A stretch of 64,000 nt of DNA from an uncultured Desulfobacteraceae bacterium (GCA_913041495.1 CAJWHT010000005.1:332-64331); one strand, 5' to 3'; positions 5,988-37,767 are shown, counted from the first letter of the stretch. Program-made: numbers and translations. The notes: generated from the sequence alone by a model not told the origin.

Positions 5988-9523
<3,536 letters not shown>

Positions 9524-10537: not shown

Positions 10538-11998
10538 ATGGAATTGGAGAAATCCATGTCTCAAAGAAATAGGGCCAGGGCGATTCCCAAGGTTTCAACA
10601 GGTATCTCCCCCCTGGATAATATCCTGGAGGGCGGATTTCCCAGAGACCGGACGATTCTGATCAAAGGTGGCAGCGGTACGGGGAAAACCCTGCTGGCGC
10701 TGGAATTCCTGTGCGCCAATGCAGCCGGCAAAACCCCGGGCATCTTTGTTTCCTTTGAAGAAACCGCCGATGATATTCGGCAGAATGCCCTGTCGGTGGG
10801 GCTTGACCTTGATGCCCTGGAGAAAGAGGGGTCATTTTTTCTCTGGGACGTGGATATGACGGATCCGTCAATGGTCACAGGCCCGGTCTCCATCGAAGCG
10901 CTTCTGGCAGGCATCCAGGGTAAGGCAAAAGAAATGGGGGCACCTTGTATCGTGTTTGACGGCCTGGACCTGCTGCTTCGGTTTTTTAAAACCCCTGAGC
11001 AGCGTAGGAACGAACTTTACCGGCTCAACTCCTGGCTTAAAACCAACGGGTTTACTGCGGTGTTAAACCAGAAGCAGTACCGGGCTGAAGCCGATAAACT
11101 CAACTCTGAAGCCATAGACTATATGGCCGACTGCCTCCTGCTTTTGGACCGGCGCATTAAAGATCAGGTGATTACCCGGCGGCTCCAGGTTGCCAAATAC
11201 CGGGGATCAGGATTTTCAACCAATCAGCATCCGTTCGCCATCACCGACAGGGGGATACGGATCCTACCCCTGTCTGATATAAGACTGACCCGTCCATCGT
11301 CCCATAAGAAGCGTATTTCCAGCGGCAGCCCTGACCTGGATCGTATTCTTGGGGGCGGCTTTGCCAGCAATGCCACCGTCCTTTTAACTGGTCCCAGCGG
11401 CATCGGAAAAACCACTTTTGCCACAACTTTCAGCTGCCATGCCTGCGACCGGGGCCGGCGGGTGCTGTATGTCAGTTTTGAAGAAGCGCCCCAGGTCATT
11501 GTGGAGAACATGCGTTCACCCGGCATCGATCTCAGCCAGGCGGTTGAATCTGAATCCCTTGCTTTCTATGCCAGTCTACCCGAAATCATGGGGGTGGAAA
11601 GCCATCTGTTTCAACTCATGGACCGGATTGAGGCCTTTGATCCCCACCACCTGGTGGTGGATGCTGTTTCCGCATTGGGGCGCATGGGCACAAGACGTGG
11701 CGGTATCGATTTTCTCACCCGGCTGATCTTCTGGTGCAAAGATCGTGAAATCACCTGTCTTCTGACAGACCAGGTCCAGGAGAACCCCATGATTTCCACC
11801 TCCGCGGTTTCAGCCCTGCTCTCCGTCATCGACACCCATATCGCGTTGGGGTTTTACAAGAGCGGCCGCAGGTTTTTAAGGGAAATCCGCGTGGTCAAAT
11901 CCCGTGGCGTTCACCATTCCAGCCAGTGTAAAACCTTTTCCATAACTGATAAGGGGATTCGGATTCACCGGGATGAGTCACGGCTGGAGGGCGAATAA
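10538..11998 (+). CDS. kaiC: KaiC-family double RecA-like ATPase
   Basis: 486 aa with two tandem domains. Each has a Walker A (GGSGTGKT, GPSGIGKT) followed by VSFEE(T/A). KaiB is encoded directly downstream. Confidence 0.9.
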   Translation: MELEKSMSQRNRARAIPKVSTGISPLDNILEGGFPRDRTILIKGGSGTGKTLLALEFLCANAAGKTPGIFVSFEETADDIRQNALSVGLDLDALEKEGSFFLWDVDMTDPSMVTGPVSIEALLAGIQGKAKEMGAPCIVFDGLDLLLRFFKTPEQRRNELYRLNSWLKTNGFTAVLNQKQYRAEADKLNSEAIDYMADCLLLLDRRIKDQVITRRLQVAKYRGSGFSTNQHPFAITDRGIRILPLSDIRLTRPSSHKKRISSGSPDLDRILGGGFASNATVLLTGPSGIGKTTFATTFSCHACDRGRRVLYVSFEEAPQVIVENMRSPGIDLSQAVESESLAFYASLPEIMGVESHLFQLMDRIEAFDPHHLVVDAVSALGRMGTRRGGIDFLTRLIFWCKDREITCLLTDQVQENPMISTSAVSALLSVIDTHIALGFYKSGRRFLREIRVVKSRGVHHSSQCKTFSITDKGIRIHRDESRLEGE

Positions 11999-12276
11999 TG
12001 GAAACTCGGGGGATTGAATATGATCTATGCCTCTTTGTGGCAGGGGACGAGCCCAACTCCAGTCTGGCCAAAAAAAACATCACCGCCATCTTCAACGACT
12101 GCCTTGGCGGGGCGGGACGGCTGACCATTGTGGATGTGTTTGAAGAGTACAGATCAGCCATTGAACAGAATATTGTGCTGACACCGACCCTGGTGGTGGC
12201 GAAACCTGTCAGAATTCGTCTTCTGGGCACCCTATCGGACCGGGATGCCGTGCTTTCCGCCCTGGGGGTGATATGA
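11998..12276 (+). CDS. kaiB: KaiB (thioredoxin-like fold clock protein)
   Basis: 92 aa. LCLFVAGDEPNSSLAKKNI ... VDVFEEYRSAIEQNIVLTPTLVV matches the KaiB signature. The start shares one nt with the kaiC stop (TAATG). Confidence 0.88.
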   Translation: METRGIEYDLCLFVAGDEPNSSLAKKNITAIFNDCLGGAGRLTIVDVFEEYRSAIEQNIVLTPTLVVAKPVRIRLLGTLSDRDAVLSALGVI

Positions 12277-13616
12277 GAGATCCCAAACCCAGCTATGAGG
12301 CCCTTGAAAAACGGTTGAAGGAAACCGAAGAAATTCTTGAGGTCGTTCAACGCGGGGAAGGGGATGCGTTCCTGTCAAAGGGCCGGTACATGGTGCTGCG
12401 TAACCGGGAGGCTGAAAAACAGCTTCTAAAGAGTAAAGCCCAAATAATGCAGCTCAACCAGAATCTGGATGCCAGGGTAAAGGAACGGACGGCGGAAAAA
12501 GACGTGCTTAACCGGCGGCTTCGGGGGATGAGCCAAAAACTTGTCCGGGTGGAGCGGGATGAGCGCAATAAGCTGTCCACCCTGCTCCATGATCATATCC
12601 AGCCCCTGGTGGTGGGTGCCCGCATGCAGGTGTGGGAACTCCAGAGAAATTCAGACCCGGAGGCCGCAAATAAGACCGCAGAAAAACTGGAAAAGGCTCT
12701 GGCGGATGTACTTTCAGCCCTGCGCTCCCTGTCCGTGGAACTCAGTCCGGCCGCCTTGCAGAACAACGGGCTGTCCGGCGGTCTCAATTGGCTCAAAACC
12801 TATATGCAGGAAAAATTCGGTTTTACCGTCAACCTGACAGCGGCCAGTGATCTGGAGCCCTTGCAGGAAGAGGCCGCCTTTCTCCTGTTCGAAGGGGTCA
12901 AGGAACTGCTGCTGAACGCGGCCAAACATTCCGGGGCTTCCGGCGCCGACATGCTGGTCCGAAGAACGGAGGCTGATTTGATCAGTATCGTTGTGGCGGA
13001 CCAGGGCCGGGGGTTCGATCCGGCCATTATCCGGGACGAGACCACGGAAACGGCAACCCTTGGGCTTTTCAGCATTCAGGAACGCCTGGCTTCAATCGAC
13101 GGGCGGATGCTTGTGGAAACCGCCCGGGGCCGGGGAACAAAAGTCACCCTCACCGCACCGGCCGGGGAAAAAAGGCACCCCCCACTTCCGGCACACAGCG
13201 ATGCTGACACAAAGCAGGCGGATCGTTCTATCCGCATAAAAGGTGACATGGTCGGCATTCTTATCGTTGATGACCACAAGGTACTCAGAGACGGCTTAAA
13301 AGGCCTGCTCCAGCCGGAACCGGACTTCCATGTCCTGGGGGAGGCCGGCAGCGGGAAAGAGGCCCTGGAACTTGCAGGCGAACTCTCCCCCGATGTGATT
13401 CTCATGGACATCAACCTGGGGGACATGCACGGCGTTGAGGTCACCCGGAAAATTTTGTCCCGCCATCCCGAAATCCGGGTCCTGGGTCTTTCCATGCACG
13501 AAGACCCTGATCTGATAAAGGCCATGTACGACGCCGGGGCCTGTCATTATCTCACCAAGAACGAACCGTCTGAAAAAATCGTAGCCGCGATCCGGAAGTG
13601 CATGGCCGGCCATTAA
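12273..13616 (+). CDS. hybrid sensor histidine kinase (coiled coil - HisKA_3 - HATPase_c - receiver)
   Basis: ERNKLSTLLHDHIQPLVV H-box of NarX/DegS type, LLLNAAKHSGAS N-box, DQGRGF, and a C-terminal ILIVDDH...DVILMDINLGDMHG receiver. The start forms an ATGA overlap with the kaiB stop. Confidence 0.88.
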   Translation: MRDPKPSYEALEKRLKETEEILEVVQRGEGDAFLSKGRYMVLRNREAEKQLLKSKAQIMQLNQNLDARVKERTAEKDVLNRRLRGMSQKLVRVERDERNKLSTLLHDHIQPLVVGARMQVWELQRNSDPEAANKTAEKLEKALADVLSALRSLSVELSPAALQNNGLSGGLNWLKTYMQEKFGFTVNLTAASDLEPLQEEAAFLLFEGVKELLLNAAKHSGASGADMLVRRTEADLISIVVADQGRGFDPAIIRDETTETATLGLFSIQERLASIDGRMLVETARGRGTKVTLTAPAGEKRHPPLPAHSDADTKQADRSIRIKGDMVGILIVDDHKVLRDGLKGLLQPEPDFHVLGEAGSGKEALELAGELSPDVILMDINLGDMHGVEVTRKILSRHPEIRVLGLSMHEDPDLIKAMYDAGACHYLTKNEPSEKIVAAIRKCMAGH

Positions 13617-20836: not shown

Positions 20837-21169
20837 TTAGTGTTTGATTTTTGCCAGGACCTCGGGTGTCGGTTTGGGCAGACCCGCAATTTTCCATGCG
20901 GTTATCGGATCCGGAAACGCCTGGTACTGGCAATCTTTTGACTGGCCGACATTTTTACATACAGCCCGGACAATGGGAAATGCCTCGAATTCTTTATAAT
21001 ATTTTCGCATATATTTGAGTATATCCATCCGGTCCCGGCTGAGCGGGCATTCTTTTGAGACGCCCTCAATATCCGCCAGTGTACAGGCAATGCTTTCGGA
21101 CCAGGCGTCAAAATCTTTCAAATACCCATCTTTGTCGAGTTTTAAATCATCTAAATTGGCATGTGTCAT
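20837..21169 (-). CDS. TusE/DsrC/DsvC family protein lacking both conserved C-terminal cysteines
   Basis: 110 aa, colinear with DsrC (DKDGYLKDFDAWSE..., ILKYMRKYYKEFEAFPIVR, KIAGLPKPT). It ends PKPTPEVLAKIKH instead of PKPTGCV, and the upstream Cys position is Trp (TAWKIAG). Confidence 0.85.
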   Translation of the reverse strand: MTHANLDDLKLDKDGYLKDFDAWSESIACTLADIEGVSKECPLSRDRMDILKYMRKYYKEFEAFPIVRAVCKNVGQSKDCQYQAFPDPITAWKIAGLPKPTPEVLAKIKH

Positions 21170-23165: not shown

Positions 23166-23789
23166 TCATTGCCCCTGAATGGGCCCCCGGTCGAACTCAA
23201 CGATCCGTGCAAATTCCTTATCGATCCCCGGTGCAACCCGGTGGAAAAGGGGGCTGTCCTTTTCCACCCTGCCGCCCATGTCGTAGGTAAAGGCGGCAAG
23301 GGCCCGGTGGCGCAGCCAGAAACCTTCCCGTACGGCACCGGTGGCATCGTAGCAGGAGTGGAAATGGAGGTATTCATCCCGGGGGGCGGGCCGGCTGTCC
23401 AGCCAGGCTGCGGGAGCTGCGTCAAAGAACACCGGGCTGGTACGGCCCGTATCCGGCAGGGAATCGCCCGTATCCGCCAGGCGGACAAGGACGGCATCCC
23501 CCTCAAACAGCTTGGCCCCGGGGGGCAGGTCCCTGGTGTAGAACTGGTCCTGGTTGAAGCAGATAAAGGACAGTTGCCTCAGATTGCCCTGGGATTTGGG
23601 TTTGAAGTAGTACCCCACAAACGGGCCGAACCGGTACAGCCGGCCGGATGCCGTGATCTCAAGGACCTGTACGAATCCCCGGGGCGGCACAGGCGCTGCG
23701 GCCTGTTCCTTGCCGTCGGGTTTGCAGGCCGCAAACATCAGACAGGCACCCACGAGGCATACCCAGAGAAGGACACAGCGCCGGGTCAT
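23166..23789 (-). CDS. lipoprotein of unknown function, last gene of the rhodanese/YeeE operon
   Basis: An internal ATG gives MTRRCVLLWVCLVGACLMFAAC, which is lipobox-like. The start forms an ATGA overlap with the upstream stop. Confidence 0.6.
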   Translation of the reverse strand: MTRRCVLLWVCLVGACLMFAACKPDGKEQAAAPVPPRGFVQVLEITASGRLYRFGPFVGYYFKPKSQGNLRQLSFICFNQDQFYTRDLPPGAKLFEGDAVLVRLADTGDSLPDTGRTSPVFFDAAPAAWLDSRPAPRDEYLHFHSCYDATGAVREGFWLRHRALAAFTYDMGGRVEKDSPLFHRVAPGIDKEFARIVEFDRGPIQGQ

Positions 23790-24319
23790 GATTTTTTCCA
23801 GACAGCGGATATGCCCCAGACCGCAGCACCCAGCCCCAGGCAAAATAGAACCATGGCTGAGAGGGGGCTGCCCGTAAGATCCGCCACGGTGAGCTGTCCA
23901 AGGTTGTAGGGATCGTAGAGCAGCGGGATCAGGGTGTCGTGGAGGTGGGCGAATACGGCGGCACCGGCAAGGCCGCCTGCCAGGGCGAACAGGGCGTCCA
24001 TCCGGCCTTCTCCGGCCGCAGCCCAGGTCGTGCCCGGGCAGTAGCCGCAAAGGCCCCAGCCGATGCCAAAGAGGATGCCTGCAATGGTGGTGGCCCCGAG
24101 GCTCAAGGGGAGCACCCGGGTGGTGTCGATACCGGCGGATTTCAGGCCGGCAATGCCCAGGGCGGACAGAATCACGGCGGTGAGCATGAACATGGGGATC
24201 TGGGGTTCTTGCATGAGATGGGCCCTGGCCATCTTATCCGGGTCGGTGGCACCCACCCGCTGGATGATAAATCCAAAGGCAATGCCGGAAAATACGCCTA
24301 AAACTATATTGGGGGTCAT
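23786..24319 (-). CDS. YeeE/YedE family sulfur-compound transporter, C-terminal-half type
   Basis: About 177 aa and polytopic, with GWGLCGYCPG motif. The start forms an ATGA overlap with the upstream gene. Confidence 0.8.
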   Translation of the reverse strand: MTPNIVLGVFSGIAFGFIIQRVGATDPDKMARAHLMQEPQIPMFMLTAVILSALGIAGLKSAGIDTTRVLPLSLGATTIAGILFGIGWGLCGYCPGTTWAAAGEGRMDALFALAGGLAGAAVFAHLHDTLIPLLYDPYNLGQLTVADLTGSPLSAMVLFCLGLGAAVWGISAVWKKS

Positions 24320-24843
24320 GATTTCTCCTTTCTCGTTTTTCCGTATACCAGACGGGCTGTTACCATGGCCGCACCAAAGATGAGGACGCCGAAGTAAAGT
24401 CCGGACAGGGAAAGCTGGGATGATCCCGAGATAAAAAGGCCCAGGGTGCAGCCGCCGGCAAGCCTGGAGGCGAACAGGATCAGAAATCCGCCGGCAAATG
24501 CTGCCGCGTACCGCTTGGCCCGGCTGTTTCCGAACCGCTGTTCCCATAAAGGGGGCACATCCCGCACCGGGGCACGGAAGGTGCGTCCGGCAATGAAACC
24601 ACCCATGGCCATGCCCAGTACAAAGGCAAAGAGCCAGGATCCGGGTCCGGGCATCATGGCGTAGTGCGGGTTTTGTTCCGCATAGGATGGTGCCAGGGGC
24701 GCAATGGCTCCTTTCAACAGGCTGATAAAGCCGGAGGATGAGGCGGGCGGCCCGAAGCTGGCGAATATGAATACGATGATGCCGGCCAGGGCGAATGCCG
24801 CCGCCAGCCAGTGCCAGTACAATGTCTTGGTATTATTTTCCAT
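24316..24843 (-). CDS. YeeE/YedE family sulfur-compound transporter, N-terminal-half type
   Basis: Polytopic, with SRLAGGCTLG motif. GGAGG lies 7 nt upstream of the ATG at 24843. Confidence 0.8.
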   Translation of the reverse strand: MENNTKTLYWHWLAAAFALAGIIVFIFASFGPPASSSGFISLLKGAIAPLAPSYAEQNPHYAMMPGPGSWLFAFVLGMAMGGFIAGRTFRAPVRDVPPLWEQRFGNSRAKRYAAAFAGGFLILFASRLAGGCTLGLFISGSSQLSLSGLYFGVLIFGAAMVTARLVYGKTRKEKS

Positions 24844-24845
24844 GA

Positions 24846-25937
24846 TCAACCTCCGCAGGAAATATATCCGCTGTCGTTGCCGTTATTGGTCCCTGATGTC
24901 CGGAGCGCCTTTTTCACAGGGGCATTGCCGGACGAGGCGGACCGGCTGGAAGTGCCGGGCAGCTTGCTTCCCGTAAGGCGGTGTTCCCGGGTTTCCACGG
25001 GATAGAACTTGTCCGGGTGTCCCCATTCCTTCCAGGACGCTTCATAGGTATGGACATGCTCAAATCCCATGAGGCGGAGGATGTAGTAGGAAAAGGAGCT
25101 GCGCCGCCCGGAATTGCAGTAAACAATGACGCCTTTTTCCGGATCCAGCCCCCTGTAGAGCGACTGAAGCTCGGGATAGGATTTGAATCCTTTGGTATCC
25201 GTATCCGACCAGGCACCGGTGTAGTTGATATTGACGGCCGTGGGGATGTGGCCGCGCTTGAGGGGATTGCCCCGCAGTCCTTTGGTGCCTTTCTCCCCTG
25301 TATACTCCGCTTTGGACCGGACATCCACAATCTGGTAAAACCGGTCTCCCAGCCGCTTGTAGACAAAATCACCATGGATCAGTTTTTCCGTTCGAATCTC
25401 ATCTGCAGGGGCCTGGTACAAAATGGGTTCGGGGGGGGCCTCAGTTGTTGCAAGGTCGAAGCCGGCGGCTTTCCAGCCGTCGATTCCCCTTTCCAGTATT
25501 TTTTTATTTTCATGGCCCAGAAGATCCAGAACCCAGAAGACGTATGAGGCGGTGGCGCCGCCGTCCCTGGCTGTGGAATCATAGAGAACCACGGTGTCGT
25601 TCCGGGAGATGCCCCGGCGGCCCAGTATCTGCTGGGCCTTGTTTACCCCCACAAACACAGAGGCCAGATCCTGTCCCGGGTCGCTGGTGCGGAATTCGGA
25701 CCAGGGCAGCCGGACGGCCCCTGGAATCATGGCGCCGTCAAAGTAATCGTCCGTCCTGACATCCGCAACAATGATGCCGTTCTGTCCCAGGTGGTCATGC
25801 AGCCATTGGGGGGATGCTGCAAACCGGGCGTTGGGATAACTGGACTCTGTCTGCCCGGCCGATCCCAGGGACCATATAAATCCCAAGGCCAGGGCCAGCA
25901 TGATGATAAAGTGCCTTTTGGCACGGTTCTGTTTCAT
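24846..25937 (-). CDS. periplasmic tandem-rhodanese sulfurtransferase with a Ser/Gly/Asn-rich tail ending in CGG
   Basis: Signal peptide, two rhodanese modules, and active-site loop VIVYCNSGRRSS in the second. A C-terminal tail of about 45 aa ends ...NDSGYISCGG. Confidence 0.85.
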   Translation of the reverse strand: MKQNRAKRHFIIMLALALGFIWSLGSAGQTESSYPNARFAASPQWLHDHLGQNGIIVADVRTDDYFDGAMIPGAVRLPWSEFRTSDPGQDLASVFVGVNKAQQILGRRGISRNDTVVLYDSTARDGGATASYVFWVLDLLGHENKKILERGIDGWKAAGFDLATTEAPPEPILYQAPADEIRTEKLIHGDFVYKRLGDRFYQIVDVRSKAEYTGEKGTKGLRGNPLKRGHIPTAVNINYTGAWSDTDTKGFKSYPELQSLYRGLDPEKGVIVYCNSGRRSSFSYYILRLMGFEHVHTYEASWKEWGHPDKFYPVETREHRLTGSKLPGTSSRSASSGNAPVKKALRTSGTNNGNDSGYISCGG

Positions 25938-30729: not shown

Positions 30730-30758
30730 TGTGGAAAAGACTCCTTGCTTGCCCGGAT

Positions 30759-31004
30759 TCAGGCAAGCAAGGCATCCGGTCCGGTTTCCTCATCGGGCAG
30801 GGCAACGGCCAGGTTGTTTTCCACATGACTGCCGACGGCATCTTTCACCAGGGCATCCACAGCGGCACGCTTCCAGTGGGCGTCAACCGTTCCATCGAGA
30901 ATTACGGCATCGTTTTCTACCCGGATACGGGGATTGAAGACAAAAATACGTGGGTCACTTTCCAGCGCAGCCAGTGCTTTCCAAATAATGGTGTTCGTAT
31001 CCAT
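30759..31004 (-). CDS. single-BON-domain protein
   Basis: 81 aa. IRVENDAVILDGTVDAHWKRAAVDALVKDAVGSHVENNL fits the BON pattern. Confidence 0.7.
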   Translation of the reverse strand: MDTNTIIWKALAALESDPRIFVFNPRIRVENDAVILDGTVDAHWKRAAVDALVKDAVGSHVENNLAVALPDEETGPDALLA

Positions 31005-31039: not shown

Positions 31040-31609
31040 TCAGAGCAGCCGGTAGGGCTGGGCCTTTAAGGACCAGATGCTTTGGGGATACCGGGAGGTC
31101 AAACCGGTATAGGCCTTTTTCAGCGCCTCGGGTTCATGGGTATCGTTAAACAGCGCCACGCAACTCAGGTACATCGCTTCAGGTGCCCAGTGGCTGTCCG
31201 GGTAATCGTTCACAACAATGTTCATGAGGTTTGTGGCTTTGTTCATATTTCCTTTTTGGAATTCCAGCCTGCCGTTGCCAAGCAGTATCCAGGGCGCCAG
31301 CTCCAATGGCGGCAGAAACCCCATGGAGTCTGCCAGAAGTTTCCCGCTGGGTTCCGCAAGGAACAACTGGGGGGTCCATTTTACATCCCGGTCAACATTG
31401 TCCAGTACCGTGTCGTGGCCCACCTTTAGCGGTATGCTGTACTTGTTTACGACTTCAACCACTTTTTTGTCGGGATACGTAACTGTATCCATCTGCTGGC
31501 AGCCGATTCATTCCGGATTGAAAAAATCGATGAAAATCGGTTTCTCATCAGCCGCGGCCTTTGCAAAGGCCTGTTCTTTGTTCTCTGTCCAGTGTATTGA
31601 GGATGTCAT
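31040..31609 (-). CDS. thioredoxin-fold (Thioredoxin_7/DUF255-like) protein with predicted selenocysteine: U-I-G-C redox motif (TGA at 31510-31508)
   Basis: My own translation from the ATG at 31609 (SD AAGGAGA) gives MTSSIHWTENKEQAFAKAAADEKPIFIDFFNPE-TGA-IGCQQMDTV..., in frame with the 150-aa ORF-track ORF that starts at 31492. The TGA occupies the first-Cys position of the family pattern vlvdF.a.WC..C..m. Confidence 0.65.
31473..31490 (-). promoter_or_regulatory. candidate bacterial SECIS-like hairpin
   Basis: GGAUAC-AGUUAC-GUAUCC (6-bp stem, 6-nt loop containing GUU) begins about 20 nt 3' of the in-frame UGA. Confidence 0.35.
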
Positions 31610-31839
31610 GATTTCTCCTTTTGGTTTCTTCTTGTCGTTGTCTGGTTAATCCTGGATTCCGATACCCCCCGATTGGCGGGGCGGCAGTTTATCATTAGGG
31701 TTAAAAATGAAAGTGCATTGGCCAGTTCACTGTCTTCCGGATAGATGCCGTCACCCGTATGGTGTGCTGAAAGTCTTTCCCGGGGGGATGACAGCACCTC
31801 ATCCAATTTGTTCCCTGAAGGGCGGTGTTGTTTTTCCAT
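31606..31839 (-). CDS. hypothetical small protein, translationally coupled to the Sec-thioredoxin-like gene
   Basis: The ORF stop TGA overlaps the downstream ATG (TCATGA). GGGAGAA lies upstream of the ATG at 31839. No recognisable family. Confidence 0.35.
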   Translation of the reverse strand: MEKQHRPSGNKLDEVLSSPRERLSAHHTGDGIYPEDSELANALSFLTLMINCRPANRGVSESRINQTTTRRNQKEKS

Positions 31840-32163
31840 GGGCGTTCTCCCGTGTTGTTGGTGGGGGGCCATTTAAAATTGCATCATAACCCTGGCTCCC
31901 TATTGGATCTATGGGTGGATTCCTGTATATGCCCACCTGTCACCCTGTATTGAACCGGCCTGAATCTGCTCTTTTGGAAGTTGGAATTACAGGGTTTAGA
32001 CCATTTAGCTGTTTCGGCAGATATGTTTTCATAGATAACAGTACCTTGCCTGGTTCTTTTCGGGATGTTCCATATTACTGAGGTGAGGTGAACCAGAAAA
32101 TACCTTGGGATTCCTGCAGGCCTGCCGGTCTGAATCGAACCCGGGGGAAGGGATTATGTCACA

Positions 32164-32397
32164 ATGGTTGTTCATACATCAGTTTGCCACATCGCCGCCG
32201 ATACGGGGCCGGATCCCCTGCCGGAAGTTCCGGTGCCCGGTAAACCCCCTTTAAAGGATCCGCCGGTAAAAGAACCGCCCCAGCCGCCGTCACCGGATGA
32301 AGCACCCCCCAGGAAAGATCCTCCGCCGGTCAAGCCGCCCTTGAAGGATCCTCCGGTCAAGGACCCGCCAGTCAAGGATCCGCCGGTTCGGTTTTGA
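32164..32397. repeat. degenerate 15-nt tandem repeat, coding-capable on both strands (KDPPV-type Pro-rich on plus, GGSF/GGL Gly-rich on minus)
   Basis: Plus frame reads PLKDPPVKEPP...PPVKPPLKDPPVKDPPVKDPPV. Minus frame reads GGSLTGGSFKGGLTGGGSFLGG...GGSFTGGSFKGGLPG. The strand is not resolved. Confidence 0.4.
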
Positions 32398-32431
32398 ACC
32401 GGAACCTGCTGTGCTAGGTAAGTTAATGGCG

Positions 32432-33168: not shown

Positions 33169-36100
33169 TCATTTGTCTCCACTATTCCGGATAGTGGCCA
33201 TAAGATCATTAAAATGACCGTTTTTGTTGAAAAAGGCAAAGGCTCCGCTGTCTGACACTTCCCGGGACATATCCTCGTGTTCGTACATGGTCAGCAGAAT
33301 AACCCGTATATCGGGGAACGCCTCTGTAATCTGCCGGGTGGCCGCCAGGCCGTCCATCACGGGCATGGAAATATCCATGAGGATAACGTCGGGCTGATCC
33401 CGGACCGCCATCTCAACGGCCTGGGCTCCGTTCGAAGCCACGGCGGTCATACGGATGTCCGGCTGTTGGGCCAGTACGTTGGACAGGGCGTCCCGCATCA
33501 CGGCATGGTCGTCCGCCAGCATGACCCGGATCTCTTCACCCGGTTTAGCGCCTGAGGCTGAATCCGGCTGAACGGCTTCGGGCACCGGCGGGGACGGTAC
33601 GGCATCCGGTGTTATGTGATGGTTTTCGTCGCTGTAGTGTTCCGTGGCAAGCGGGGATGTCAGTGAAATTCGGGTGCCTTTTTCCGGTGCACTGTCAATC
33701 TCGAACCTGCCCCCCAGCAGTTGAATCCGTTCCCGGATGTTAAAAAGCCCGAATCCGCTTAGGTGTTTTTTTTCATCCAGTGCAAGATCCGACGGATCAA
33801 ACCCGTTCCCCCCGTCGCTGACAACGATGGAAAGCCGGGATTCGTCAGCAGTCACAAAGACGGATGCTTCCGTGACACCGGAATGCTTCACCGCATTGAA
33901 CAAAAGCTCCCGGACGGATTCGTAAAGCAGGATGTTCAAGGATTCCTGTTTTACTTCAATGTGCTCGTCCGCTGTGAGGGTGACCTCAAACCCGTGCCGC
34001 GATTTCATCTGCCGGATCAGCCACCGAAGGGCGCTGACCAGTCCCTTGGCATGGAGAATGGTGGGGGACAGTTCCGTGGCCAGGCTTCTGGAGGCGTTTA
34101 TGGCTTCTGCCGTCATTTCAAGGGCAGCGGTAATCTCTTTTTGCCCCCCGGCCATACCTTCTTTGCGCTGCAGGGTTTCCAGCCTAAGTTTGGTTCCCAC
34201 CAAGAGCTGCTGGATATGGTCGTGGAGCAGGGCAGCCAGGCGGCGGCGTTCCCGCTGTTCCGACAGGGTAAGCTGGCCGGTGAGCCGGACCAGTTCTTCA
34301 CTTCGCCGCCGCATCCCCGCTTCCAGTTTTTTGAGCCGGGTCATATCCTTGGCAATGGTGGCAATGGCTTCGGGCTGTCCGGTGCTGTCCTTTATGGTAA
34401 ATGCGGTGAGTAGCGAGGGGATGGTCTGGCCGGATCTGTTTTGCCGGACCGCTTCAAGATCGTGAACCATCTCCCCGTCAATGCAGCGCCTGCGCAGTTT
34501 TCTTTCAAAGGCCTGCTGTTTTTCAGGCACCAGCCGGAACACGGACGTACCGGTAAGTTCATCCACGGCGTACCCATATGCGGTTGCGGCCGCATAGTTG
34601 ACCTCGGTCATCAGGCCTTCCAGATCCTCAATGATGATGGGATCGGTGGCATCCATAAAGACACGGGACAGCTTTTTCACCTCGTCTTCGGCCTGCTGGC
34701 GGGTTTCCGCTTCCAGTTCAAGGGCCTTAACCGTGGATTCCAGTTCCGCGGTCCGTTTTCGAACCTGTTTTTCAAGGCTCTCTCCGTGGTTGGCCAGCAG
34801 CGTTTCCATCTGTTTGCGCTCCGTGATGTCCTGGACCACCACGTTGACGGCGGCAATTTCTCCGTCCCGGTCCGTGATGGGCATCCACTGCTCGATCCAG
34901 GTCCGTTCCATATCGGGATATGCCGGGGTTTTACCGGTTATTTCCATGTCCCAGACCGGCTCCCCGGTCTTACGGATCGTTTCCAAAATATCCTCAACCT
35001 GGTCCGCCAGGTCCGGCACAATTTCGCTGATATGACGGCCGATATGGTCCGGTATGGGTATCCCGTTGATATCGGCCATGGTCTGGTTGATCCGCAGGAA
35101 CTTAAGTTCTTTGTCGATCATGCACAGGCCGATGGGGGCGCTGGTGTAGATGGCTTCCAATTCGGAAAGGTTCCGGCGGGCCGCCTCCTGGCTTGCCTTA
35201 AGGTCGGCTTCGAATTTTTTACGCTGGGTTTCATCCCGGCAGATTATCCCAAGACGCCCTGCTTCAAGGTGGTATACCGACAGGAGAAGGTCTTTTTCCA
35301 GCCGGGAAAAATGGGTGGAAAAAATGTTGGGTCTGCTGCCTTTGGATATATTTTCCAGCTGTGTTAGCATCTGTTTTTTGGCAAGCTCGGGCAGACCGAC
35401 AATACTGGCCCTCAGGGGGAGATCCCTGGCGTCTATGGAGAGCATGGTCTCCATGGCGGCATTCACCTGCTGGATCATCACGTCGGTGGGGCGGCTGCCC
35501 GGCCCGTGCTCCAGTTCGCAGACCAGAAGCGCCTCGTTCATGTTGTCCACCAGGAGCCGGTAGCGCTGTTCGCTGGCTTCAAGGTCGCTGAGTGTGGCGG
35601 TGAGTTCGTCGGATTTGACCCGCATCTCCTGGTTCACGGTATTGAGTTCTTCGTTGGAAGCCTGAAGTTCTTCGTTGCTGGTTTCCAGTTCTTCATTGGA
35701 GGCCTGGAGCTCCTCGTTGGCGGACTGGAGTTCTTCGTTGAGGGACTGGAGTTCTTCACCACTGGTTTCAAGTTCCTCCAGGGTGTCCTGGAGATGCTCC
35801 CGGGTCACCTCAAGTTCCTGTTCCAGTTCCGCGATCCTTGAATCGCTCCGGTCGCTGTCGGATTCATCAGGGGACAGGGGGGGATCCGGAAGCTCAATCC
35901 GGTCGAAAATCGTCAGAAAATAGGTCTGGCCGGCGGTTTCTTTTACCTGCCCCACCTTCAGCCGTACGGCCCTGTTGCCGTCCTGGCCCTCCATTTTGAT
36001 TTCCTGGCTGGTGAGGACGCGGTCTTCCTTGCTTGCCCGGTGCAGCAGGCTCTGGAGGATGTACCGGAACTCCTGGCGGGCCATGGATACGGCGTTGAGG

Positions 36101-37767
36101 GTGTCTTTTACCGAGCCTTCGGGCAGCTTGAGGTAATCCCCCACATCCCCCCGGATATAAAGGATGTTGCCCTGGGCATCGGTCATGACAGCGCTGCAGT
36201 CCAGGACCTGGAGCAGGGAACTTGCAAACTCCCGCTCTTTCCACAGTTCGGTTTTTTCAAGGCTCTGGGGGGAACCGGTCATCCGGGCAAGCTGATGTGA
36301 CTGGTGACGCTGGACCAACTGGGGCATCCGGTGGCTCAAGGTTTCCCTGCGTTCGTAGATCTTCCACTTGGTGTGAACCGCTGAAAAAAGTTCGGTCTTC
36401 TGATTCACGGACTCTGATTTTCCCAGGAAGAGCAGTCCCCCCGGGTCCAGGCTGTAGTGAAAGAGGGACAGGATCTTGTTTTGCAGTTCGGGATTCAGGT
36501 AGATGAGCAGGTTCCGGCAGGATATCAGGTCCAGGTGGAGAAAGGGGGTGTTCTTGAGCAGGTCCTGGCGGGCCAGCACCACCAGGTCCCGGACCGGTTT
36601 GTTAACCGAGACCGTGTTGTCCGTGTGGGTGAAATACCGCTCAAACCGCCGGTTGTCCGTATCCATGACCGTGGCTAGGGGATAGGTGCATTTCCGGGCG
36701 AACTGGATGGAGTCCTCGTCAATGTCCGTGGCAAAAATCTGGATCCGGTACTTGTCGATTTGATCGCCCAGGATATCAAACAGGAGCATGGACATGGAAT
36801 AGGCCTCTTCGCCGGTGGCGCAGGCCGGAACCCATATGCGGATACTGTCTCCGGGGTGCTTTTCCTTAAGCTTTTTACGCAGGGCCACGGTCAGGGCCTC
36901 GAAGGCTTTGGTATCCCTGAAAAAGCTGGTGACCGAAATCAGCAGGTCCTTGTAAAGCTTGTCCAGCTCATCCGGGTTTGCTTTGACGAATTTCAGATAG
37001 TCGTAGAGGGTGGACAGCTTGTGCAGCACCATGCGGCGGCTGATGCGGCGGTATATGGTGCTGGATTTGTAGTCTGAGAAATCCACCTTGAGCCGTTTGT
37101 TCAGCAGGCTTAAGATCATGCGGATCTCATCCAGGTGCCGGTCGTGTTCCGGCTCCTGTGCAATGAGGGAGGGGTATTTGAGGGCGGATTCCAGTTCATG
37201 CCCGATTTTTTCCGGCGGCAGCACCAGGTCCACACAGTCCGTTTCCATGGCAGCCCTTGGCATGCCGTCGAATTTGGCCGTGTCCAGGGATTGGACAATG
37301 GTGATCCCGTCGTTGGATTTGATGGCCCGGATCCCGTGGGCCCCGTCGGTGCCGGTGCCCGAAAGTATGATGCCCACGGCATTGTGGCCTTTTTCTTCGG
37401 CCAGGGAGGTGAAAAAAAGGTCGATGGAGGGTTTGGGGCCGATGGACGCGGCCTGGCTCAGTTCCAGGCGGCCGCCGGCCAGTTTGACGTCTTTGCTGGG
37501 GGGGGTGATGTAAAGGGTATCTGGTCTGACCCGGGTGCCGTCCTTGATGATTTCGATTTTAAGCCGGGTGTGTTTGGTCAGAAGGCTGTCCAGCATGCTC
37601 CGGTACCGGGGGGCCAAGTGCTGGGCAATCACGTAGGCAATGCCTTCTTTTACCGGCAGGCCCGGCAGGATTCTCTGGAGGGCGTCCAGTCCGCCGGCTG
37701 AGGCGCCGATGCCCACAACAACTGCTTCATTGCTGTTTTTTTTGTCTGAATCTGCGGGTGTGTTCAT
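33169..37767 (-). CDS. CheB methylesterase - CheR methyltransferase - PAS - coiled coil - PAS/PAC - HisKA_3 - HATPase_c - receiver multidomain sensor kinase
   Basis: 1532 aa. VVVGIGASAGGLDAL (CheB), IWVPACATGEEAYS (CheR SAM site), EELQSLNEELQSANEELQASNEEL coiled coil, RRLAALLHDHIQQLLVG H-box, NAVKHSG N-box, and a C-terminal RVMLADDH...DVILMDISMPVMDG receiver. Confidence 0.92.
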   Translation of the reverse strand: MNTPADSDKKNSNEAVVVGIGASAGGLDALQRILPGLPVKEGIAYVIAQHLAPRYRSMLDSLLTKHTRLKIEIIKDGTRVRPDTLYITPPSKDVKLAGGRLELSQAASIGPKPSIDLFFTSLAEEKGHNAVGIILSGTGTDGAHGIRAIKSNDGITIVQSLDTAKFDGMPRAAMETDCVDLVLPPEKIGHELESALKYPSLIAQEPEHDRHLDEIRMILSLLNKRLKVDFSDYKSSTIYRRISRRMVLHKLSTLYDYLKFVKANPDELDKLYKDLLISVTSFFRDTKAFEALTVALRKKLKEKHPGDSIRIWVPACATGEEAYSMSMLLFDILGDQIDKYRIQIFATDIDEDSIQFARKCTYPLATVMDTDNRRFERYFTHTDNTVSVNKPVRDLVVLARQDLLKNTPFLHLDLISCRNLLIYLNPELQNKILSLFHYSLDPGGLLFLGKSESVNQKTELFSAVHTKWKIYERRETLSHRMPQLVQRHQSHQLARMTGSPQSLEKTELWKEREFASSLLQVLDCSAVMTDAQGNILYIRGDVGDYLKLPEGSVKDTLNAVSMARQEFRYILQSLLHRASKEDRVLTSQEIKMEGQDGNRAVRLKVGQVKETAGQTYFLTIFDRIELPDPPLSPDESDSDRSDSRIAELEQELEVTREHLQDTLEELETSGEELQSLNEELQSANEELQASNEELETSNEELQASNEELNTVNQEMRVKSDELTATLSDLEASEQRYRLLVDNMNEALLVCELEHGPGSRPTDVMIQQVNAAMETMLSIDARDLPLRASIVGLPELAKKQMLTQLENISKGSRPNIFSTHFSRLEKDLLLSVYHLEAGRLGIICRDETQRKKFEADLKASQEAARRNLSELEAIYTSAPIGLCMIDKELKFLRINQTMADINGIPIPDHIGRHISEIVPDLADQVEDILETIRKTGEPVWDMEITGKTPAYPDMERTWIEQWMPITDRDGEIAAVNVVVQDITERKQMETLLANHGESLEKQVRKRTAELESTVKALELEAETRQQAEDEVKKLSRVFMDATDPIIIEDLEGLMTEVNYAAATAYGYAVDELTGTSVFRLVPEKQQAFERKLRRRCIDGEMVHDLEAVRQNRSGQTIPSLLTAFTIKDSTGQPEAIATIAKDMTRLKKLEAGMRRRSEELVRLTGQLTLSEQRERRRLAALLHDHIQQLLVGTKLRLETLQRKEGMAGGQKEITAALEMTAEAINASRSLATELSPTILHAKGLVSALRWLIRQMKSRHGFEVTLTADEHIEVKQESLNILLYESVRELLFNAVKHSGVTEASVFVTADESRLSIVVSDGGNGFDPSDLALDEKKHLSGFGLFNIRERIQLLGGRFEIDSAPEKGTRISLTSPLATEHYSDENHHITPDAVPSPPVPEAVQPDSASGAKPGEEIRVMLADDHAVMRDALSNVLAQQPDIRMTAVASNGAQAVEMAVRDQPDVILMDISMPVMDGLAATRQITEAFPDIRVILLTMYEHEDMSREVSDSGAFAFFNKNGHFNDLMATIRNSGDK

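Follow-up and report, generated by a model that had tools for sequence, protein, structure and literature searches.

Selenoproteins of the family that the Gladyshev group named 'thiol:disulfide interchange protein' have been known since 2004-2006. The reference lists of two reviews attribute the first description to Kryukov and Gladyshev in 2004 (PMC9312934; PMC13188914), and these reviews, from 2022 and 2026, characterize the family by the Pfam model PF13098, a UxxC motif in which U is selenocysteine (Sec), and the representative WP_011366075.1. Zhang et al. (2006; PMC1794560), for whom the Deltaproteobacteria were the phylum richest in selenoproteins, listed the family in Syntrophus aciditrophicus, Geobacter metallireducens and G. 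uraniireducens. Supplementary file 4 of that study prints the three sequences, for example ...LLDFFNPGUIGCKQMDAVAYPD...PYKLLKR. The DNA analyzed here, called the window, is a stretch of 64,000 nucleotides (nt) from an uncultured Desulfobacteraceae bacterium (GCA_913041495.1, CAJWHT010000005.1:332-64331). A gene on its minus strand, at 31609-31040, very probably encodes a 189-residue selenoprotein of this family, with Sec at codon 34 specified by a hairpin downstream of that codon. An earlier note, made from this DNA alone, had proposed the gene as a candidate selenoprotein. That reading stands, although its novelty does not: judged from its sequence, the protein is a new member of a family that was already catalogued.

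The gene occupies a single reading frame, 31609-31037 on the minus strand, which translates as MTSSIHWTENKEQAFAKAAADEKPIFIDFFNPE, a stop codon and IGCQQMDTVTYPDKK..., with the TGA at 31510-31508 as its sole internal stop. The complete gene (31040-31609), delimited by translation, homology and four assemblies, comprises 189 codons and its own TGA stop at 31042-31040. Its ATG start (31609-31607) is preceded, at a distance of 4 nt, by the Shine-Dalgarno-like sequence AAGGAGA (31614-31620), both read in the sequence; the ATG coincides with Met1 of most homologues and lies 33 codons ahead of the Sec codon. The in-frame UGA (31508-31510) is codon 34 and specifies the first residue of U-I-G-C, within a peptide that reads FFNPE-X-IGCQQMDTVTYPDK, where X is the TGA-encoded residue. 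The last residue of this motif, Cys37 (TGC, 31499-31501), is the resolving cysteine of UxxC and is invariant in alignments A2 and A4. A mechanical list of open reading frames (ORFs) contains in this frame only 31040-31492, a product of 150 amino acids (aa) starting at Met40. The start codon, the Shine-Dalgarno sequence, the in-frame TGA and the 150-aa ORF from the Met at 31492 had all been described in the earlier note and match the sequence. A scan of the window for ORFs joined via one in-frame TGA found this gene alone.

Full-length homologues of the 189-codon gene comprise 45 distinct genes in addition to the published family members. BLASTP gives an ungapped alignment of the window protein with the G. 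metallireducens member, 187 residues long and 35% identical (E = 5e-47), in which Sec falls on Sec, and position 34 aligns with the U of all three published sequences. The likeness extends to length (186-190 aa), to the motifs F-F-N-P-x-U-I-G-C-[QK]-x-M-D-A/T-V, W-T-P and P-Y-[RKS]-L-L, and to the same two-domain layout. It also includes the host lineages, with relatives of Syntrophus and Geobacter among the collected loci, and loci other than that of the window reach 66% identity to the G. uraniireducens member. The window copy differs from the 2006 members in its marine Desulfobacteraceae host, which is absent from the 2006 host list, and it groups with L001, L003 and L004 in a divergent sub-clade, with 52-54% mutual identity and at most 48% identity to the rest. 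The host is a Desulfobacteraceae bacterium and thus one of the Deltaproteobacteria; the GyrB of the window shares 83-88% identity with its counterparts in Desulfobacter spp., and further genes in the window include dnaN, a DsrC-like gene and a gene for a hybrid-cluster protein.

Codon 34 alternates between TGA and Cys codons across the family. The three closest relatives in the protein databases are stored as two 150-aa fragments and one 189-aa protein with 'W' at position 34, and the DNA of all three contains the same in-frame TGA and the conserved 33-codon extension. A fourth relative (P0005) has TGT (Cys) at this codon, in N-P-S-C-P-G-C. A genome scan in which each species was represented once yielded 39 loci. 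Almost all of them belong to Thermodesulfobacteriota (Syntrophales, Desulfomonile, Desulfobulbales, Desulfurivibrio and Geomonas), and one each is labelled Nitrospirae and Clostridia. The equivalent codon is TGA in 33 of these loci and Cys in 6. With all loci pooled, 36 of the 45 distinct genes have TGA and nine have TGY, a Sec:Cys ratio that is only indicative because one of the two search patterns demanded Cys and the other was biased towards the peptide encoded by the hairpin. A profile search of a database of 5.8 billion proteins returned 41 Cys clusters, 8 Ser clusters and seven 'W' entries, the last being TGA rendered as Trp (verified as TGA for P0002). The Cys homologues, both the nine distinct genes and the 41 clusters, supply the Sec/Cys pairs on which selenoprotein assignments are judged. 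The earlier note had placed the TGA at the first Cys of a CxxC motif and had asked about the 33-aa N-terminal extension; homologues do carry Cys or an in-frame TGA at residue 34, and the extension is common to them. The nearest relatives of each Cys clade outside its own clade are Sec forms, which implies at least four independent Sec/Cys switches. As a separate observation, the eight Ser clusters (P0031, P0039, P0040, P0049, P0054, P0058, P0062 and P0072) have Ser at the first active-site position, in S-[IM]-G-C, a monothiol-type variant that recalls the SQHC of Escherichia coli YbbN/CnoX.

Downstream of the UGA, at 31473-31490 on the minus strand, is a hairpin of the selenocysteine insertion sequence (SECIS) type, with a 6-base-pair (bp) stem, GGAUAC/GUAUCC, and a 6-nt loop, AGUUAC, in which G is at 31483 and U at 31482. 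The hairpin had been predicted about 20 nt downstream; its stem begins 17 nt, and its loop 23 nt, after the UGA. The isolated 18-nt hairpin has a folding energy of -6.4 kcal/mol (z = -4.9), a stability reached by 0 of 200 shuffled sequences, and a generalised form of its pattern occurs once in the window against 0.00 expected occurrences. In all 36 Sec genes the TGA is followed by N17-GGAU[G/A]C-NGUNAC-GUAU[C/U]C with no length variation, the loop being N-G-U-N-A-C throughout and A-G-U-U-A-C in the window. Conservation on this scale shows that the feature did not arise by chance. RNAalifold, applied to the 72 nt around the UGA, yields this hairpin as the only consensus structure (-7.58 kcal/mol), with the stem paired in 100% of cells across the 36 genes. 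Two stem pairs vary one-sidedly, from G.U to A-U and from G-C to G.U; in the sub-clade shared by the window copy with L001, L003 and L004, the A-U state of the first of these pairs comes from Thr42 (ACA).

To control for shared ancestry, codon usage was tested on the 45 degenerate amino-acid columns that are at least 85% conserved among the 36 Sec genes. Exactly three of these columns use a single codon in 36 of 36 genes, namely Asp41 (GAT), Thr44 (ACG) and Tyr45 (TAT), while the share of the top codon in the remaining columns ranges from 0.28 to 0.76. The third positions of Asp41, Thr44 and Tyr45 are the only synonymous sites inside the stem. Adjacent third positions, in the loop (Ala/Thr42 and Val43) or just past the stem (Pro46), are freely variable. 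The divergent Cys lineages L031, L032, L035, L040 and L044 use ACC/ACT/TCG, TTC/TTT and GAA codons and have no hairpin. Two other Cys lineages retain it, intact in L005-7 (L005:1538-1588, L006 and L007) and with one pair broken in L042 (L042:10094-10144). L005 shares 74% identity with a Sec form, in keeping with a recent Sec-to-Cys conversion, older Cys lineages having lost the hairpin, and the retained hairpins look like 'fossil' SECIS elements. On the evidence of codon usage, selection at the RNA level acts on the hairpin in Sec forms alone.

The published bacterial SECIS model (bSECISearch, as summarised in the legend of Fig. 2 of PMC13188914) was used as a yardstick. The apical loop of 6 nt compares with 3-9 nt in the model, the upper stem of 6 bp (7 bp in many homologues) with 4-16 bp, and the UGA-to-loop spacing of 23 nt with 16-37 nt; the G required within the first two loop positions is at position 2 and is followed by U. 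In these four respects the earlier suggestion of a hairpin within the SECIS window is borne out. The model places the minimum free energy at -7.5 kcal/mol or lower, compared with -6.4 for the isolated hairpin, -10.4 for the 45 nt from the UGA and -7.58 for the alifold consensus; homologues with a 7-bp stem reach -13.6 kcal/mol over 51 nt. On energy, the element is thus borderline. The window hairpin differs from the consensus bacterial SECIS element in having no N1-N2 pair inside the loop, a feature of 'most' such elements. Rfam gave no match for the whole window at gathering thresholds or for 31300-31700 at E <= 1, a result that is uninformative because no bacterial SECIS family was seen among the hits.

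Several results weigh against reading codon 34 as Sec through this hairpin. The isolated hairpin falls just short of the energy threshold of the model, and the more stable 45-nt fold has a z-score of only -1.2 and includes a small, non-conserved 5' hairpin. No compensatory double changes occur in the hairpin among the 36 Sec genes, in which it is conserved by sequence invariance. The 64-kb window contains no tRNA genes and hence no tRNA-Sec, a result that is uninformative for the rest of the genome. Searches with tblastn of the window and 50 loci, using SelA and SelB of G. uraniireducens as queries, returned weak, generic GTPase matches only, and no selA, selB, selD or tRNA-Sec was found in the window or in any fetched locus, so that Sec decoding by the host is something we infer. 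The gene neighbourhoods of related loci contain no neighbour that is conserved across the family and none that points to a substrate. Finally, both reviews grade the family as 'predicted with high confidence' and not as 'experimentally verified' (PMC9312934; PMC13188914). A SelD candidate beside a Cys homologue on L005, a gene with AIRS and AIRS_C domains, proved to be ThiL.

The alternative that survives best accepts Sec at codon 34 and disputes only the role of the hairpin: the 18-nt element would owe its conservation to the D-A/T-V-T-Y-P peptide or to some other RNA function, and a different element would recruit SelB. The missing compensatory substitutions and the slight energy shortfall fit this proposal, but a constraint on the peptide cannot explain third positions that are invariant here and free at every other conserved column, and within the 72 nt that surround the UGA alifold finds no further conserved pairing. 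The hairpins kept by the Cys lineages L005-7 and L042 also speak for another function, an argument countered by the 74% identity of these proteins to Sec forms, consistent with recent conversion, and by the loss of the hairpin in older Cys lineages. A non-SECIS role for the hairpin is therefore considered very unlikely.

The protein encoded across the TGA has a thioredoxin fold. The 189-residue sequence, with Cys in place of the stop, and the Met40 product were both searched against Pfam using gathering cut-offs. The full-length protein matches Thioredox_DsbH (PF03190; 1.6e-10, 41.6 bits) and Thioredoxin_7 (PF13899; 2.6e-9, 37.5 bits) above their cut-offs and Thioredoxin_2 (PF13098; 3.7e-6, 27.7 bits against a cut-off of 27), and the three matches cover residues 3-107, across the TGA. 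The 150-aa Met40 product has no thioredoxin-fold Pfam match, only weak tetratricopeptide repeat (TPR) and YfiO matches in its tail. The assignment of the gene to the thioredoxin fold in the earlier note is thus upheld. The domain (residues 3-107, 31289-31603) is of the DsbD-gamma/Thioredoxin_7 type according to Pfam, PDB profiles and structural superposition; its best sequence-profile matches in the PDB are 2kuc (1.2e-11) and the C-terminal domain of DsbD (1e-9). Residues 113-183 (31061-31273) form a C-terminal helical, TPR-like domain of the YbgF/CpoB/BamD kind, which matches TIGR02795 (1.2e-6) and, among PDB profiles, CpoB (2.6e-10), YbgF (3e-7) and the TPR domain of BamD.

A structure was predicted with AlphaFold2 for the natural Cys homologue P0005, using 65 family sequences, and not for the window protein. 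The model (predicted local distance difference test score, 95.5; predicted template modelling score, 0.90) has a thioredoxin plus helical-repeat architecture, with a strand at 25-30, C-x-x-C at the start of a helix at 35-44, thioredoxin elements to about residue 96 and six helices at 101-188. Its N-terminal domain superposes on DsbD-gamma and on Bacteroides 2kuc at 2.1-2.8 Å. The residues that are invariant in alignments A2 and A4 include U/C34, G36, C37, M40, W78-T79-P80 and G97-F98. W78-T79-P80 (31370-31378) stands immediately before the strand at 81-85 of the model, and from general knowledge of the thioredoxin fold we take it to be the cis-proline loop, which would face the active site. 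As read from its sequence, the 189-residue protein has no signal peptide and no hydrophobic or membrane segment, so it should be cytoplasmic, unlike DsbD-gamma.

If the TGA were a true stop, the locus would be a truncated gene or a pseudogene with the 150-residue Met40 product as its only protein. This is how gene callers and NCBI treat it, as a 150-aa 'hypothetical' or 'tetratricopeptide repeat protein', and an ATG is indeed available at codon 40. Yet 36 genes, drawn from several orders, all conserve the reading frame of the 33 codons upstream and contain no other stop there, the Met40 product would lose strand 1, the whole active-site motif and all thioredoxin matches, and a pseudogene would not retain one specific stop and a hairpin over such phylogenetic depth; a genuine stop is accordingly regarded as extremely improbable. 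The database records illustrate the extent of the truncation. At least 50 entries in the 5.8-billion-protein database start at or just after Met40, and an exhaustive 50%-identity library holds 154 representatives below 1e-30, with about 55 of the best 150 cluster representatives starting at profile positions 34-44, just after the Sec codon. The named truncated entries, one of which is an NCBI record labelled Desulfocastanea catecholica, are called 'hypothetical protein' or 'tetratricopeptide repeat protein'. On sister contigs the callers give a separate 33-aa gene followed by a 150-aa gene (L047:1884-1985 and L049:1884-1985, corresponding to the 33 codons before the TGA). The mis-annotation by default callers foreseen in the earlier note is therefore real, the gene being either split or truncated, and the split-gene signature could be mined for other missed selenoproteins.

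Decoding of the UGA as a standard amino acid, whether as Trp or Gly in an alternative code or by near-cognate read-through, has a comparably minute probability. The seven database entries with W at this position are what callers using code 4 or 25 would produce from a TGA. TGA, however, is the normal terminator of gyrB, of the selenoprotein gene itself and of many other genes in the window, from which it follows that the genome uses the standard code. Moreover, the aligned residue in homologues is a redox Cys and never a Trp or Gly with its own codon, and a hairpin that is selected only when the codon is TGA is a hallmark of SelB-dependent decoding.

That the TGA is a sequencing or assembly error for TGC or TGT in an ordinary CxxC thioredoxin-like protein, as the existence of Cys-containing homologues might suggest, is hardly conceivable, with all 570 nt of the gene, TGA included, matching exactly in four assemblies that differ in sample and pipeline (ENA ERZ27286497, NCBI GCA_003538835.1, JGI 3300020429 and ENA ERZ14209642) and with TGA likewise present in the three closest relatives. 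The TGC or TGT that, according to the earlier note, resequencing might reveal thus does not appear in any of these assemblies. The NCBI copy is on contig DPRB01000411.1, and the JGI metagenome is, we presume, a Tara Oceans sample.

Returning to the reading of the gene as a selenoprotein, a mechanism can be outlined. During translation, the hairpin at 31490-31473 would expose an apical loop containing G-U, 23 nt beyond the UGA. Given a host that decodes Sec, it would recruit SelB carrying Sec-tRNA(Sec), and codon 34 would be read as selenocysteine; the same triplet at 31042-31040, which has no such hairpin, would terminate the protein. Sec34 and Cys37 of U-I-G-C would lie at the N-terminus of the first helix of the DsbD-gamma-like fold, opposite the W-T-P loop. 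Sec34 would serve as the attacking residue and cycle between a selenol/thiol state and a selenenylsulfide with Cys37, thereby reducing or exchanging the disulfides of a partner. The YbgF/CpoB-like TPR helices at the C-terminus would most likely hold that partner or substrate.

Several other described systems resemble the window protein in part. No NCBIfam model reaches its cut-off for this protein; the highest score, 33 bits against a cut-off of 805, comes from TsoB and its DsbD-like C-terminal domain. Weak local similarity exists to the TsoB C-terminal domain (1.3e-8) and to VPGUxxT type 2 and Trx7/PDZ (about 5e-4). TsoB, TsoX ('HSGNPxU'), VPGUxxT, Trx7/PDZ, HUIPC and SaoT all combine a thioredoxin fold with Sec in or beside a CxxC-type motif, and they differ from the window protein in motif and architecture. 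The N-P-x-U string of the window protein resembles the motif name of TsoX, but the NCBIfam models for TsoX (NF045809), HUIPC and SaoT gave no match even at E <= 1. The DsbD gamma domain and Bacteroides 2kuc are the closest solved folds for residues 5-113, with CxxC at the same place, and this similarity probably explains how the family got its name. DsbD-gamma belongs to a membrane protein, of which it forms the periplasmic end, whereas the window protein has neither signal peptide nor membrane segment and ends in a TPR-like tail. Identity with full-length DsbD was rejected; NF001419 scores 22.7 bits against a cut-off of 330, and only the C-terminal domain aligns.

The domain order of the window protein, thioredoxin then TPR, is also that of the YbbN/CnoX chaperedoxins (PMC10998233; PMC8129009). 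The best whole-chain structural match of the P0005 model, obtained with Foldseek, is E. coli YbbN/CnoX (3qou; E = 4.5e-5), with a template modelling score of only 0.42 and a root-mean-square deviation of 11.9 Å over 200 columns. CnoX is approximately 100 residues longer and has a larger TPR domain, and it was compared with the family by structure and not by sequence. E. coli YbbN has SQHC (PMC10998233), and some members of the family have S-x-x-C. The shared domain order, the weak whole-chain match and the SxxC variants are what suggest that the family might be a selenium-dependent, cytoplasmic chaperedoxin of the CnoX/YbbN type, uniting a UxxC thioredoxin with a TPR domain, a proposal that is considered unlikely. 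If it is true, anaerobic sulfate reducers and syntrophs would use such proteins to hold and re-reduce oxidised clients, and the SxxC variants would be equivalents of E. coli CnoX that form mixed disulfides.

An upstream ORF of 88 aa (31606-31872, minus strand) ends in an ATGA overlap with the start codon of the selenoprotein gene. The earlier note had cited this overlap in support of the longer gene; the overlap exists, but the ORF lends the longer gene little weight, as it has no homologue near related loci and matches neither Pfam nor NCBIfam models, and by these comparisons it is probably not a real gene. Together with a Pro-rich ORF of 77 aa on the plus strand, likewise doubtful, it is all that occupies the approximately 820 nt upstream of the selenoprotein gene (31610-32431), an unusually long non-coding space for a bacterial genome, within which a 15-nt tandem repeat, AAGGATCCGCCAGTC, is present in 2.7 copies at 32344-32384. 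Downstream, 35 nt past the stop, is an 81-aa ORF (30759-31004, minus strand) that is also called on sister contigs, has a weak BON match (1.1e-4, below the gathering score) and is probably co-transcribed with the selenoprotein gene. A terminator-like hairpin with a 13-bp stem followed by a T-run (30743-30772, minus strand), identified by a consensus scan only, would close the transcription unit. In related genomes, a heavy-metal P-type ATPase that resembles CopA and has two HMA domains is encoded within about 1 kb downstream, on the opposite strand, at L018-L023, L027, L036 and L042. This neighbour is confined to one Syntrophaceae sub-clade and one Desulforhopalus locus (L042), and the adjacency may hint at copper handling or may reflect lineage-specific synteny.

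Other features of the window were noted in passing. At 5988-9523 (plus strand), dnaN, recognised by eye, is followed by gyrB, identified by Pfam domains and GyrB names, and from this gene order the window may be near the chromosomal replication origin. The region 10538-13616 (plus strand) encodes in a row, by visual reading of ORF translations, a KaiC-like double ATPase (486 aa), a KaiB-like protein (92 aa) and a histidine kinase/response-regulator fusion (447 aa), an arrangement that here occurs in an apparent sulfate reducer. A DsrC-family protein (20837-21169, minus strand; Pfam 8.3e-18) ends in ...LAKIKH and appears by eye to be without the C-terminal cysteine arm of catalytic DsrC; it may be a TusE/RspA-like paralog. 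The region 23790-25937 contains a double-rhodanese gene (24846-25937, minus strand) followed by a split YeeE/YedE sulphur-transporter pair, the first half lying at 24316-24849 and the second, an ORF in the next frame, reaching about 170 aa and terminating near 23800. ORF lists do not show this second half because a longer but spurious ORF of 294 aa (23166-24050) hides it. Each half is a Cys form, in a family whose members elsewhere include Sec forms. A half-length YeeE/YedE match had suggested a second selenoprotein in the window, a candidate that was rejected when the missing half proved to be an ordinary Cys-form ORF. At 33169-37767 (minus strand), a polypeptide of 1532 residues combines a CheB methylesterase, a CheR methyltransferase and several PAS domains, according to precomputed Pfam annotation, with a histidine kinase and a receiver recognised by eye.

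The gain for selenium biology is modest and the novelty low, the main value being a practical rule for repairing a widely truncated gene. The gene exemplifies a systematic annotation error in which the Sec forms are stored mostly as 150-aa 'hypothetical' or 'TPR repeat' proteins, and the pattern TGA-N17-GGATRC-NGTNAC-GTATYC, combined with the rigid motif, provides a simple means of correcting such entries. The family also offers an unusually clean natural experiment, in which the three synonymous positions of the stem are held constant only in genes whose codon is TGA. With far more members than the three of the 2006 list, it uses Sec in about half of them or more.

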